This document shows positions 26,711-56,590 of a stretch of 64,000 nucleotides of DNA, one piece after another. Source of the stretch: Eledone cirrhosa (lineage: Eukaryota); contig OZ024743.1 in assembly GCA_964016885.1 (NCBI GenBank), positions 103,788,001 through 103,852,000 of the forward strand. The letters are read 5' to 3'. Every line of letters starts with the position of its first letter. The first letter of the stretch is position 1. A model generated the notes under the pieces. The model searched no databases, had not been told where the DNA came from, and saw only the letters and a program-made list of their open reading frames with translations. The position numbers and the translations under genes were made by a program.

Positions 26711-26786
26711 ACAGATTAAATTTTTTAGTTTCAGAAGATCCCGTTAATGTTGAAAGCAGCGAATATTTGCTTAAACTTTAATCTGT
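26711..26786 (+). ncRNA. Type I HHR-like motif with CAGAAGA core (family C); copies 43620-43695 (-), 44150-44224 (+), 56485-56557 (+)
   Basis: acagattaa..agttt CAGAAGA tccc/gggt GAAA gca...tgc TT aaact ttaatctgt; stem II is intact in the other three copies and degraded here. Confidence 0.7.
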
Positions 26787-27342
26787 TCTTATAACAAATA
26801 TATATATATATATATATATATATATATATATAGAGAGAGAGAGAGAGAGAGAGAGAGAGAGAGAGAGAGAGGGGGGGGGATGCTTTGTACGGCTTTTGGA
26901 GGAAGGAGTGACCAGCAGTACGTTGTTCGGTATTATTACGAAAAGGTGTAGCAGAGAATCCCGCATGAACTAACAGCTCGGGAGGAAACTGCTTACCTCG
27001 AAGATTCATTCGCCATCGTTCTTGTCAACGCTCCGTTTACTTGGTATTTGTTGGTCTACAGTTAGATGAATGGCGCACAAAGGGTTATGTTTATTGGCAA
27101 GAAGTTTTTTTAATAAGAGCGACCTACAATGTATCTGTATATATATATATATATGTGTGTGTGTGTGTGTGTGTATGTATGTATGTATATATATATGTAT
27201 GTATATATATATATATATATATATATATGTGTGTGTGTGTGTGTGTGTGTGTGTGTGTGTGTGTGTGTACATATATTTTTATGTGTATATTTATATATGT
27301 GTATATGTGTATATCTATATATGTGTATATGTGTTTGTATAC

Positions 27343-29390
27343 ATGTGACAATTCTTAGCCATTTTGAATTCGTTTCTGGCGGGGATCATTTAAGAAAAAT
27401 CTTTGTCCAATTGAGTTTGTTTCCTGATGATTTCGAAACTCGTGAATTTATCCATGATCGGATATTTCCAAAAAGCGAATGGAATCTCATGGGGTAGAAA
27501 CATAATTTTGGTATGTTTATGTACATTTTTTCTTCTAACGTTGATTTTGTACCTGATTGTGTATGGTTGGCTATATGTCTAATCAATTTCTACGGGCTAT
27601 TAGAAATGCTAGGTAAATCTTCTGTGGCTGTTGATCGCAGATAAAATAGCTATCATTTATTTATCTATTGTTTCTTCATAGGTACATTTTAAACTTATTG
27701 CCTCGTTTAATTGATTTTTTGTGTGGTTAATTATTCTGATTGGGAGGAGAAATACTGTATATATTTTATCAAATGATTCTATGGACTTACTTTCTTATAT
27801 ATTGCTCTGATTGTTGATTATTTAATTAATTAATACGTCATTGAGCCACACCGTGAATGGTTGCCAAAAACACACACACACACACACACACACACACACA
27901 CACACACACACACACACACACACACACACACACACACATATATATATATATATATATATATATATATATATACCTATGGCTCTGTCTAGTTTATGTATAT
28001 GTAAACCTATATATTTTATATACTCCCGTATGGTTGAGTAAAAATTTAGGCAGTATTCGGCTGCGCTTTCTAGCAACCAGCCTACTCGCCGTCAGGCACC
28101 AATCCCAAGCTTTCTGACTTGACCACTGGCTATGTGACAATTCTTAACCATTTTTAATTCGTTTCTGGCGGGGATCATTTAAGAAAAATCTTTGTCCAAT
28201 TGAATTTGTTTCCTGATGATTTCGAAACTCGTGAATTTATCCATGATCGGATATTTACAAAAAGCGAATGAAAGCCCATGGGGTAGAAACATAATTTTGG
28301 TATGTTTATATACATTTTTTCTTCTAACGTTGATTTTATACCTAATTGTGTATGGTTGGCTATATGTCTAATCAATTTCTACGGGCTATTAGAAATACTA
28401 GGTAAATCTTCTGTGGCTGTTGATCGCAGATAAAATAGCTATCATTTATTTATCTACTGTTTTTTCATAGGTACATTTTAAACTTATAGCCTCGTTTAAT
28501 TGATTTTTTGTGTGGTTAATTATTCTGATTGGGAGGAGAAATACTGTATATATTTTATCAAATGATTCTATGGACTTACTTTCTTATATATTGCTCTGAT
28601 TGTTGATTATTTAATTAATTAATTCGTCATTGAGCCACACCGTGAATGGTTGCCAAAAACACACACACACACACACACACACACACACACACACACACAC
28701 ACACACACACACACACACACACACACACACATATATATATATATATATATATATATATATATATATATATATATACCTATGGCTCTGTCTAGTTTATGTA
28801 TATGTAAACCTATATATTTTATATACTCCCGTATGGTTGAGTAAAAATTTAGGCAGTATTCGGCTGCGCTTTCTAGCAACCAGCCTACTCGCCGTCAGGC
28901 ACCAATCCCAAGCTTTCTGACTTGACCACAGGCTATGTGACAATTCTTAACCATTTTTAATTCGTTTCTGGCGGGGATCATTTAAGAAAAATCTTTGTCC
29001 AATTGAATTTGTTTCCTGATGATTTCGAAACTCGTGAATTTATCCATGATCGGATATTTACAAAAAGCGAATGAAAGCCCATGGGGTAGAAACATAATTT
29101 TGGTATGTTTATATACATTTTTTCTTCTAACGTTGATTTTATACCTAATTGTGTATGGTTGGCTATATGTCTAATCAATTTCTACGGGCTATTAGAAATA
29201 CTAGGTAAATCTTCTGTGGCTGTTGATCGCAGATAAAATAGCTATCATTTATTTATCTACTGTTTTTTCATAGGTACATTTTAAACTTATAGCCTCGTTT
29301 AATTGATTTTTTGTGTGGTTAATTATTCTGATTGGGAGGAGAAATACTGTATATATTTTATCAAATGTTTCTATGGACTTACTTTCTTAT
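27343..29390. repeat. Tandem repeat, ~2.6 units (periods 789 and 803 bp), with internal (CA)n(TA)n
   Basis: Units start at 27343, 28132 and 28935; near-identical. Confidence 0.95.
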
Positions 29391-53172: not shown

Positions 53173-53623
53173 TTCTAACGATAGTAATAATTTGCCACCT
53201 GCACATTATTATGACAGAGATGTATTTTTATATATAGCCCTGTGTCGTTTTAATCCATCATTTGACTGGTAGACTTTATAAACATGCATGTATATGTTTA
53301 CATCAAGAGGTAGAAGTGTATTCTGGTATATATCACTAAGTCGTTTTATCTACCAATAGATATGCAGACCTTCTTATATGTTATATAATTCGAAGACTCC
53401 TATTGGCTTATTCTTTTCATTTCGGGGTTTAATTTTATGTGAATTTCTTCAAATCGATTTTAATGGATTATGAATATCAAATGGAGTATTTTGTTTATTT
53501 AGCGGGAATATAAACATTTGGAACCATATGATTTTCTTTATTCTTTTTTATCCGTAATCTGTGATAAAATGTTTGGTCCAAATTAGTCATTTAATATTTA
53601 GAATATTTTTTATTCTATTTCAG

Positions 53624-54072
53624 TTGCTGTTGTGGTAGCCTTCTTCATTTGTTGGGCTCCATTTCATATTCAACGACTCATGGTGTTTTATGTAAAGGAA
53701 TGGACAAAAAACCTCCGCCAGGTAGAGAAAATAATATTCTATATATCAGGTATTCTCTACTACTTCAGTGCGACAATCAATCCTATACTCTACAACATAA
53801 TGTCTGTGAAATATAGACAGGCATTCAAAATGATATTATTGAGCTTGTGTACTAAGAATACTCATAGGAATCATACGGTTATGTTATATAGATATACATT
53901 TAAAGATCGGAAACATCTTGATATCGTCGACAAAGCCAATGACTGCTTCGTTCCTCCACGTGAATGCAGACCCCTATGTATATGCCCACTTCCATCCAGT
54001 GGAAATTCTAACTCAGGATATTATAAAGACAATATGGTACCTCTTCCACCAATAAATGATAAACAAAACTGA
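53624..54072 (+). CDS. Exon 2 of the same GPCR (TM6-7 and C-tail); spliced product 452 aa
   Basis: Acceptor tattctatttcAG; in-frame join KMLVAVVVAFFICWAPFHIQRL; NPILYN; TGA ends at 54072. Confidence 0.93.
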
Positions 54073-56590
54073 TAAAGTATATATACATATATATATACAT
54101 ATATATATGTGTGTGTGTGTGTGTGTGTGTGTGTGGAAAAGGTGTATTCAAAGGATCTCTTTTTTCCTCTTTTTCTTTATATATATATATATATATATAT
54201 ATATATATATATATATATATATATATATATATATATATATATATATGGGAAAGTAAAAAACAACAACACAGGAGTACAAGTTACGAGAGATATTAAGTTC
54301 ACGCTTATTGAGAGTGGGGGTGTGTGGGTGCGACGTTTCGGGATAAGCCCTCCATTATATATATATAATTGTTTCTACTTTTGGCACAAGGCCAGCAATT
54401 AACCAGTACATTACTGGTACTTTATTCTATCGACCCCGTAAGGATGAAAGGCAAAGTAAACCTCGACGGGATTTGAACTCAAGCCGTAAAGGGACGTAAC
54501 TATGCTAGAAAGCATGGCGTCCAACCCTCTACTGATACTGCCAATTCACCGCCCTACCCCCTATATATAATGTTTTGTAAACATGTGCCAACCTCAGGAA
54601 ATGATCATCGCTTCACATTTATTTTTGCTATTGTTTTACCTATTGTTATGGTGGTTATGGTAACGAGTAAAAAACTGTGTTTATGGTGACTATTTTGTCA
54701 AGCTTTTGAGCGACGATCACAAATTTCTCTATTTAAATATCAAATTTTACATGCATCTTTCATAATTGAAAATTCATTAAAAAAAGATTAAATTATTGCA
54801 AATAACGTACCGATATCATATTTAATTCCTTGATTCTTGTTCGCTCTTTTTCATATCCATACCACTCAAACAATTCTACCTCATGCATTCCACCCTCTCT
54901 ACTTATACCCAATGTCGATATATGTATGTATGCACGCATGTATGTATGTATGCACGCATGCATGTATGTATGTATTTATGTATGTATGTATGCAAGTATG
55001 TATGTATATACAGTGACGGACTGGGTCTAAAAATATTGGTTGCCAGGAGATGAAGGGGGCCCACCTACATATAGAATGCTATCATTTAATTTTTATAATG
55101 AATAAATAACATTTTCAAAAAATACATAAGTGGAAACAAAACAGTGCAATCAAATTTTTGCGGGAAAATGTCTTACCTTCTCCAATAAAAAATATGTATT
55201 TTGTGAAATCCAGAGACTTTCAATAATGACCTTTGGTCTTTCACACTCAATATATATATATATATATATATATATATATATATATATATATATATATATA
55301 TATATATATATATATATATATATATATATATATGTATATAGTAATAATAATAAATTTGAAGACTAAAATCCAAAGAGGGCTCGATAAGGATAAATATATA
55401 TCAAATATATAAGAACCGTAGAGCATACACTGGGAGATCCTAGCTAGGGCTAGATCGTATAACGGAAATAAAAGACCATGTGACCTCTGCGCCGCTGAGG
55501 CTCTGGAAATACTCTACGCCACAGACCACATCTAAAACAAAAAATCTGAGGCAATTTCGGCTTGTAAACATAAATTGCACAAAACTTTCCTGTATTACAG
55601 CCCCACGTTATACCCTAACAGATAGTACGATCTATACGTGGATATTTTACGTCTTGATATGGGAGCTAAGAATATGTTTTGTTTATACCATTACTTATTT
55701 TATATTTGATTGTTTATGTTATGGCTTATAATTTTATATATTCTGGTACATATGGTTTGGCTATGTGTATACGGGAGTTTTGCGTCTGTGTGAGTTTGCT
55801 GGTTCGTACGTTTGTGGGTGTGTGTATATGTGTACTTCATGTTTTGGTTGACTTACGTCTCCGAACATCCGTGTATTTACATGTAGGTATGTGTGTGCGC
55901 TTGTTATATACGTATTTATTTATTTATATACGTTTATATAATTATTTATTTATTTGTATACACACATACACACACACATATTTATATGTGCATCGTTTTG
56001 TATACCTATGGTAAGTGCTTTGCGTATGCTTGTGTATGTACGTATTTGTTTGCGTGTATGTATTTATTTATTTCTATTACTTCTGTATTGTATTTATTTA
56101 CTTTGTTCTTAACTCTGTAGCGGAGATTCATTCGGTCTCCTTGTTAGAATTTTAGTCTACAACTTCTGCTATACCATTTACGTGGTTTTGTCTTTGCGTG
56201 CTATTGTTCTCGACGCTCCACATATGACGTATTATCCTCGTTTTTTTCGTTCATTGCTAGAGAACGTCTCTATGAACCACCTGAGAGAACATTAGTCTAC
56301 GACCTCTCTTATACCATAAACGTGGTTCTGTCTTTGCGCGTAATTGTTTTTCACCGCTCCTATTAATGACGTATTATATTCGTTTTTTCCCGTTCTTTGC
56401 CAGCGAACGTTTCCACGAACCAAAGTATCGCCTTCCTGTCTTCCTCTGGTTGCAACGTTTTTTGAAATATCCACTTCTGCGTTTACAGATTGACTTTGTT
56501 AGTTTCAGAAGATCCCGTTAAGGGTGAAAGCAGCGATTCTTTGCTTAAACTTTAATGTTATTTTAATAAATATATATATATATATATATA

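Follow-up and report, generated by a model that had tools for sequence, protein, structure and literature searches.

The window analysed here is a stretch of 64,000 nucleotides of Eledone cirrhosa DNA (contig OZ024743.1 of assembly GCA_964016885.1, positions 103,788,001 to 103,852,000). It is AT-rich and contains many microsatellites, and it comes from a genome of 3.0 Gb. Four copies of a motif with the layout of a type I hammerhead ribozyme were found in it, all carrying adenine instead of the near-invariant uridine at position 4 of the catalytic core (U4A). This substitution is the norm of the whole repeat family, here called family A, which is a Penelope-like element (PLE) of autonomous type. 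Hereafter A4 and U4 denote the base at position 4; the subfamily that bears the label A4 is always called subfamily A4.

The four copies and their host element

The core CAGAAGA, described by an earlier sequence-only reading of this DNA, was read again in all four copies, at positions 26732, 44170 and 56506 of the forward strand and at 43674 of the reverse strand. Stem II is CCC/GGG with a U.U closure, decayed to ccc/ugu in the copy at 26711, and the GAA strand is followed by stem III (AGCA/UGCU) and by U16.1-U17. Proximal stem I is AGUUU/AAACU, with an AAUUU variant at 43620, and distal stem I is ACAGAUU/AAUCUGU, cut at its 5' side in the copy at 44150 and shortened by a 2-nt deletion in that at 56485. 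The same reading had claimed this stem II with its U-U closure, stem III, the UU site and a bulged stem I that is partial in two copies, and on re-reading all of them stood. The parts of the element present in the window are as follows.

26332–26710, forward strand: 5'-truncated 3' untranslated region (UTR) of the element, upstream of copy 1, delimited by blastn against the family consensus
26711–26786, forward strand: hammerhead-type motif copy 1; core 26732–26738, A4 at 26733, U17 at 26772; stem II decayed
43620–43695, reverse strand: hammerhead-type motif copy 2; core 43674–43668, U17 at 43634
43696–44068, reverse strand: 5'-truncated 3' UTR, upstream of copy 2
44150–44224, forward strand: hammerhead-type motif copy 3, 5'-truncated in distal stem I; core 44170–44176, U17 at 44210
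44225–44317, forward strand: post-motif sequence with the optional "tail", followed in tandem copies by the start of the open reading frame (ORF)
55338–55425, reverse strand: a tail copy in inverted orientation, attached to the copy-4 insertion at its 5' end; such inversions are typical of PLEs
55425–55625, forward strand: last 65 codons of the ORF, the C-terminus of the endonuclease; 97% identical to the family protein, with one in-frame stop
55626–56484, forward strand: complete 3' UTR, or pseudo-long terminal repeat (pLTR), with an internal duplication of ~140 bp
56485–56559, forward strand: hammerhead-type motif copy 4; core 56506–56512, A4 at 56507; predicted cut between 56546 and 56547

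Copies 2 and 3 stand in inverted orientation to each other, and the element that carries copy 4 ends at ~56570, within a (TA)n tract. The ~140-bp duplication in the 3' UTR of the young family (56146–56422, 78% identity) adds to the length of the unit. A chance origin of the motif is excluded, since a 29-mer of the repeat has 19,559 exact matches in the genome and its reversed control has none. No hammerhead was found among the matches listed (150 of 171) in an Rfam scan of the window at E ≤ 1, where the canonical PLE motifs of the window were likewise unlisted.

The sequence-only reading had placed the motif at the 3' end of a non-coding element of ~500 bp. This part of the description has to be replaced, as the copy at 56485 reaches upstream to 55425 and so takes in the final 65 codons of an ORF, and full-length copies bearing that ORF were found elsewhere in the genome. 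Indeed, loci around genomic copies hold reading frames ending in the same peptide as 55425–55625. A query with the ORF start returned 30 loci, 20 of which were extended, yielding 21 ORF starts; four of these (L097, L102, L106 and L108) open an uninterrupted frame of 708–709 amino acids. An identity as a retrozyme or other non-autonomous element, with tandem short units and no ORF, was rejected on the basis of these ORF-encoding copies, the short copies being truncations. The unit measures ~3.26 kb from motif to motif, and the full-length copies examined are mostly 95.6–99.6% identical to their consensus, with one outlier at 84%. The stop codon of the 709-amino-acid ORF precedes the motif by ~950 nt; where copies stand in tandem, the ATG follows it by 199 nt, and the predicted cut lies 158 nt ahead of that ATG. 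The 3' ends of the elements cluster ~30 and ~117 nt past the predicted cut, in (TA)n.

Several hallmarks of the Hydra clade of PLEs, as defined in Craig et al. (2021, PMC8557442), were recognized. Insertion is into (TA)n, and the pLTRs occur in tandem and inverted, with an optional tail. By eye, the 709-amino-acid protein shows RWR, DKT, CNCRNRADC (CxCx5C), CDLC (CxxC) and CKH (CxH), in agreement with the RWK, DKT, CxCX5C linker, CxxC and CxH, with no CCHH, of the clade. The 709-amino-acid ORF and its look-alikes in the Atlas, found at 0.96–0.99 and in some clusters carrying GIY-YIG or RVT_1, point to a single ORF for a reverse transcriptase (RT) with a C-terminal GIY-YIG endonuclease. A GIY-YIG Pfam match was found in two of 57 aligned relatives; a direct Pfam scan of the 709-amino-acid protein matched 0 families, and a PDB search with it returned nothing specific. 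A size under 3 kb is a tendency of the clade rather than a strict criterion, and the ~3.26 kb of family A exceed it because its 3' UTR is long. The hammerhead departs from the canonical Hydra form in its A4 core, whereas its position and remaining layout fit File S2 of that paper. Altogether, the four window copies are best described as 5'-truncated ends (pLTRs) of a young, autonomous PLE with Hydra-clade hallmarks; the tree described below covers unnamed relatives only.

Position 4 across the family and its relatives

Exact genomic 29-mer matches numbered 19,559 with A at position 4, 89 with T and 47 with C (G was not counted separately), so that A occupies the place where a type I hammerhead has U. 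Nineteen of the 30 ORF-start loci include the upstream core, which has A in 17, G in one and T in one, the single T being the locus of the query itself. The intact-ORF copies L097 and L102 have A4 on both sides. In an independent run over 12,471 contigs, 31 differences reached 1%, none of them in the core strand. A low-depth run labelled organism B shows A4 in a single contig. A4 is thus the family norm, and the fixation of U4A proposed in the sequence-only reading is borne out by the rarity of T copies in the genome counts.

A prevalence of CUGAAGA copies was considered and rejected. A looser pattern for bases other than A gave 1,053 matches, and 18 of the 20 inspected (12 plain ones and 8 chosen because of their odd loops) proved to be foldback junctions with position 4 at their centre. 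The quasi-palindrome UUC-A-GAA is an inversion hot spot, and a foldback there writes CTGAAGA onto one strand, which accounts for the false matches. Many perfect foldbacks are centred exactly on core position 4 (e.g. L218–L231 and L234–L237), marking a snap-back hot spot, and the 5' arm of proximal stem I is the exact starting point of many old truncated copies. T-bearing copies were also dismissed as autonomous masters, as the only such full-length copy, L105, has A4 in its downstream pLTR and four stops.

The relatives of family A point to U4 as the ancestral state. Seventy-seven metagenome loci encoding relatives at 36–45% identity were scanned with position 4 left free; 18 showed no motif within the scanned range, and all 59 that did (39 distinct) have U4. 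The Hydra entries in File S2 of PMC8557442, 26 in number, likewise all have U4 (CUGA). A sister family represented in the window, B, keeps U4 in 21 of 21 copies, with the core UUGA(C/A)AA or CUGACAA. The possibility that family B shares U4A was discarded, its CAGAA sitting in loop II and its core being UUGA(C/A)AA. In a tree of partial rows, which are short and give low support in places, family A groups with its own old subfamilies (support 0.91), and next to it stand two database proteins (P0001 and P0006), followed by the other families of the genome. Finally, a rare, decayed subfamily of family A, A0, shares the stems and the CUU site and appears to have U4. Among its copies found without fixing position 4, T was read in L428 and L451, C in L442, and A in L429 right at the truncation edge; four further T copies (L380, L381, L386 and L387) came from a pattern with T fixed and so are no independent evidence. 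The presence of U4 in this oldest subfamily is suggestive, not proven. Taken together, these sequence comparisons show that A4 is derived from U4.

Family B occupies 13030–15311 (reverse strand) and 15289–16330 (forward strand) of the window, with short ends at 41830–41900 and 43455–43580. It is young and abundant and shares ~50% amino acid identity with family A. Its hammerhead retains U4 alongside the U3-A8 swap, which is known from elsewhere; the cleavage site is GUC, and the long stem II is capped by a loop of ~33 nt. Two more families related to family A have left decayed ORF remnants at 3503–4193 and 44638–45655, both on the forward strand (29–52% amino acid identity in pieces).

Retention of the architecture and the case for cleavage

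The derived core has persisted. Copies of older subfamilies, whose ORF DNA is only 71–78% identical to the young consensus (decay included), gave 98 A, 1 C and 1 G among the matches listed in one search (100 of 292), and 95 A, 3 C and 2 T among those listed in another (100 of 283). Subfamily consensuses were built from copies found via a downstream anchor or the ORF, without reference to the core, and only copies spanning the motif and its upstream context were counted (190 of 655 profile hits). Between subfamily A4 (6 copies) and subfamily A1a (27 copies), 0 of 12 core, 1 of 27 stem, 10 of 21 loop and 47 of 135 UTR positions had changed, with N7 counted as loop (Fisher's test, p = 0.008 for core versus UTR, 0.004 for core versus loop and 0.0004 for stem versus UTR). 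Subfamily A2 (15 copies) compared with A1a gave 0 of 12, 0 of 28, 8 of 23 and 41 of 136, respectively (p = 0.017). The count over five subfamilies, a sample found in part with core-fixing patterns, was 0 of 12, 2 of 42, 12 of 23 and 67 of 147. The stems are thus conserved between subfamilies, as the sequence-only reading required, and the sole change in the core strand is at N7, a position free to vary. C3, G5, A6, G8 and A9, G12, A13 and A14, A15.1-U16.1 and H17 are all present. Three helices surround the core, helix I being open, and their 22 named pairs are paired in 89% of cells over 18 copies, compared with 23–48% when the alignment is slid. Covariation is weak: the single clean case is the terminal pair of distal stem I, where C-G and U-A replace each other, and the other double changes are in decayed copies. 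The fixation of core and stems while loops and UTR changed argues that the hammerhead architecture, core included, was selectively retained after U4A and is still under selection. As the conserved core is single-stranded, this pattern leans modestly towards retained activity.

The sequence-only reading had named two alternatives, a functional core variant and a catalytically dead fold retained for the RT. The reading we favour, with a probability of about one half, is that the pLTR hammerhead fixed for U4A is a slow, probably protein-assisted, self-cleaving ribozyme. We infer binding by the element protein, its assistance, the cleavage and its purpose, as follows. By analogy with the anole Poseidon element, reverse transcription would start just 3' of the motif, on mostly uncut RNA. 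The element protein would bind at this start region and aid folding of the hammerhead, and tandem or read-through transcripts would at times be cleaved after U17 and so trimmed 158 nt 5' of the ORF. A reduced cutting rate would be cheap for the element, because insertion uses uncut RNA. Two published precedents are relevant here: a natural U4C variant is weak in vitro and sufficient in vivo (PMC3088659), and an anole PLE hammerhead cleaves only with its protein, insertion proceeding from uncut RNA (PMC11167929). Predicted folding may add a further element. Replacing U4 by A4 is predicted to gain 1.4–3.1 kcal/mol in four of five post-change consensuses, through relief of a hairpin between the 5' flank and CUGA; in older subfamilies A4 is thus predicted to remove a core-trapping hairpin, and this may partly make up for the chemical loss. 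That pairing can trap CUGAU has been proposed in the literature for a different site (PMC1636495). The hammerhead fold is predicted at 3.3–4.5 kcal/mol above the ensemble in the five post-change consensuses, with a median of 4.7 in 50 canonical relatives, and is in this respect no less accessible than theirs; whole-motif folding z-scores are unremarkable (−1.2 to 0.1).

A number of observations weigh against this reading. None of the 30 ORF-start copies begins at the predicted cut site: 22 run through it and 8 begin past it, the nearest starts lying at −6 and +6, the latter beside a masked stretch. Of the short copies on (TA)n inspected by eye (100 of 118 listed), ~14 start at TAAAC around the cut, ~22 at the next TA and ~10 at ACTTT, and ~6 of 42 unique sites start around the cut in a second search; the breakpoints follow TA microhomology, with no peak at the cut site. 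The footprint comparison is weak, as its control family gave only 9 matches. The cleavage triplet is CUU, a poor one, whereas at position 16.2 C occurs in none of the 59 outside relatives and G in 58 of them. Folds of lower energy than the hammerhead are predicted, and in the youngest subfamily A4 is predicted to be 0.3 kcal/mol worse than U4 and to pair the two core strands, with P(C3:G12) of 0.4 against 0.02 with U4. Single and double mutants of the CUGA turn all have low activity except the C3/G8 swap (PMC9901934). As to conservation, subfamily A4 compared with subfamily A2 alone gives no significant contrast (p = 0.49), the N7 change amounts to about one event, the subfamily tests are not independent since the consensuses are related, and a protein binding the folded core would conserve the same bases. 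A core-sequestering "off" helix as the cause of conservation was rejected, being predicted only in the youngest subfamily (P ≤ 0.07 in four older consensuses).

These observations bring a close rival only slightly behind, which we consider somewhat less probable: U4A would have killed catalysis, and the three-way fold, core included, would be kept as a handle by which the RT/endonuclease places reverse transcription at two downstream start sites. The weakness of CUGA-turn mutants (PMC9901934) fits this explanation, as does the lack of effect of catalytic mutations in the anole PLE hammerhead on in vitro insertion (PMC11167929). Naiads lack canonical hammerheads and yet reach very high copy numbers (PMC8557442), and family A itself has amplified to at least 19,559 copies with A4. 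The element 3' ends lie just past the motif, ~30 and ~117 nt beyond the predicted cut, and no cleavage footprint was found in ORF-start or short-copy breakpoints. Nevertheless, a missing footprint does not imply a dead ribozyme, because the anole PLE hammerhead cleaves without RNA ends at its site (PMC11167929), and the control family here was small. Moreover, the other 11 scored core positions remained fixed against a 35% change in the UTR, which is more than would be required of a secondary-structure signal, and none of five subfamilies has fixed a further core lesion.

An improbable alternative makes A4 a fully efficient new core, in which the CUU site, together with a short stem II and the bulged stem I, makes up for the lost U-turn base and religation to circles erases the footprint. 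Strict core conservation, the extended and bulged stem I, whose end pair shows one C-G/U-A swap, the predicted folding gain and the circular templates proposed for PLEs (PMC4209133) would agree with it. However, A4 came without any further change in the core, both stem III and the CUU site are older than it, no double mutant of the turn restored activity in pairwise mutagenesis (PMC9901934), and PLE hammerheads are generally slow (PMC4209133). Least probable of all, and already largely refuted, is a functionless relic hitch-hiking in a successful master copy and uniform only through recent amplification: most full-length copies examined are 95.6–99.6% identical to consensus, so that high copy counts alone are uninformative on selection, but A4 persists in the subfamilies with 71–78% ORF identity, and the neighbouring UTR and the loops are far less conserved than core and stems.

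Returning to the slow, assisted ribozyme, a bolder version would have a natural hammerhead cleaving without U4, its A4 core selected as a protein-gated ribozyme through at least five successive lineages and U-turn chemistry traded for escape from a folding trap; this we regard as tentative and rather doubtful. PLE hammerheads are near-universal and yet dispensable, as regards cleavage, for insertion in one in vitro system (PMC11167929). Family A offers a natural experiment in one genome, with a probable U4 ancestor and A4 descendants whose core and stems are otherwise identical, the youngest A4 subfamily being among the most abundant repeats of the genome. Should A4 cleave, the core would tolerate more variation than mutagenesis of other hammerheads has suggested, and searches with fixed CUGA would undercount; such descriptors would have missed a class of active Penelope ribozymes, and some elements reported as hammerhead-less may carry them. 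If it does not, this would be a clear case of the whole tertiary core of a ribozyme kept as a protein-binding signal. Either way, a fixed and conserved U4A makes the function of PLE hammerhead motifs directly testable.

Other hammerheads in the window and in the literature

Further hammerhead-like motifs occur in the window. One at 41404 (forward strand) has a CCGAAGA (U4C) core, an 8-bp stem II and a palindromic stem III. Canonical CUGANGA motifs were found at 39854, 39329, 34700, 56691 and 3179 on the reverse strand and at 56783, 5613 and 57903 on the forward strand (56783 and 56691, and 5613 and 3179, being listed together); they come from at least three other repeat families, presumably other PLEs. 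Two tandem arrays, one of four copies of a 497-bp unit at 98% identity (58518–60511) and one with a period of ~800 bp (27400–29300), contain CTGATGA without convincing hammerhead stems. An isolated, diverged 5S rRNA match (42429–42546, forward strand; 68 bits, above the gathering score) may be a pseudogene or a 5S-derived short interspersed nuclear element.

Among known systems, family A most resembles the Hydra-clade PLEs (PMC8557442), with which it shares the single ORF with C-terminal GIY-YIG, the RWx, DKT, CxCx5C, CxxC and CxH motifs, the (TA)n targets, the tandem and inverted pLTRs, and a hammerhead near the 3' end with a U.U-closed stem II and, often, U17. It differs from them in its CAGANGA core, all 26 rows there being CUGA, and in its CUU site, a non-palindromic stem III with a 9-nt loop, a long bulged stem I and a 3.26-kb unit; the octopus family Hydra-1_oBim of the same study has a different, canonical motif. 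As in the PLE hammerheads of Cervera and De la Pena (2014, PMC4209133), a type I motif lies in both pLTRs, most copies are scattered truncated singles, an extra nucleotide follows A9, and low activity is expected. The core variant described there is a compensated U3-A8 swap, whereas here an uncompensated change of position 4 is fixed.

The PAc hammerhead of anole Poseidon (Frangieh et al., 2024, PMC11167929) likewise lies just 5' of two RT start sites that define the tail, and neither RNA nor genomic ends fall at its cut site. Unlike family A, it has a canonical core, its cleavage with the help of the protein has been demonstrated, the motif overlaps the start codon, and the element is of a different clade. 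Natural variants such as the viroid U4C, the phage A6C and U15.1-A16.1 (Perreault et al., 2011, PMC3088659; PMC7151607) are also single core departures that lower, and do not necessarily abolish, cleavage; those described in the parts consulted are rare or confined to single genomes, include no U4A, and none is fixed over tens of thousands of copies and several lineages. Our literature search found no natural U4A hammerhead, with subscription literature mostly outside its scope; Figure S7 of PMC3088659, on inactive variants, could hold one. Non-LTR retrozymes (bioRxiv 10.64898/2026.07.22.740005) share the PLE-derived type I hammerhead, but they are non-coding tandem repeats, whereas family A encodes its own protein and its short copies are truncations. 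Hammerheads in Penelope elements are expected; what is not expected is an uncompensated change of a near-invariant base that became fixed and then stayed conserved over several lineages.

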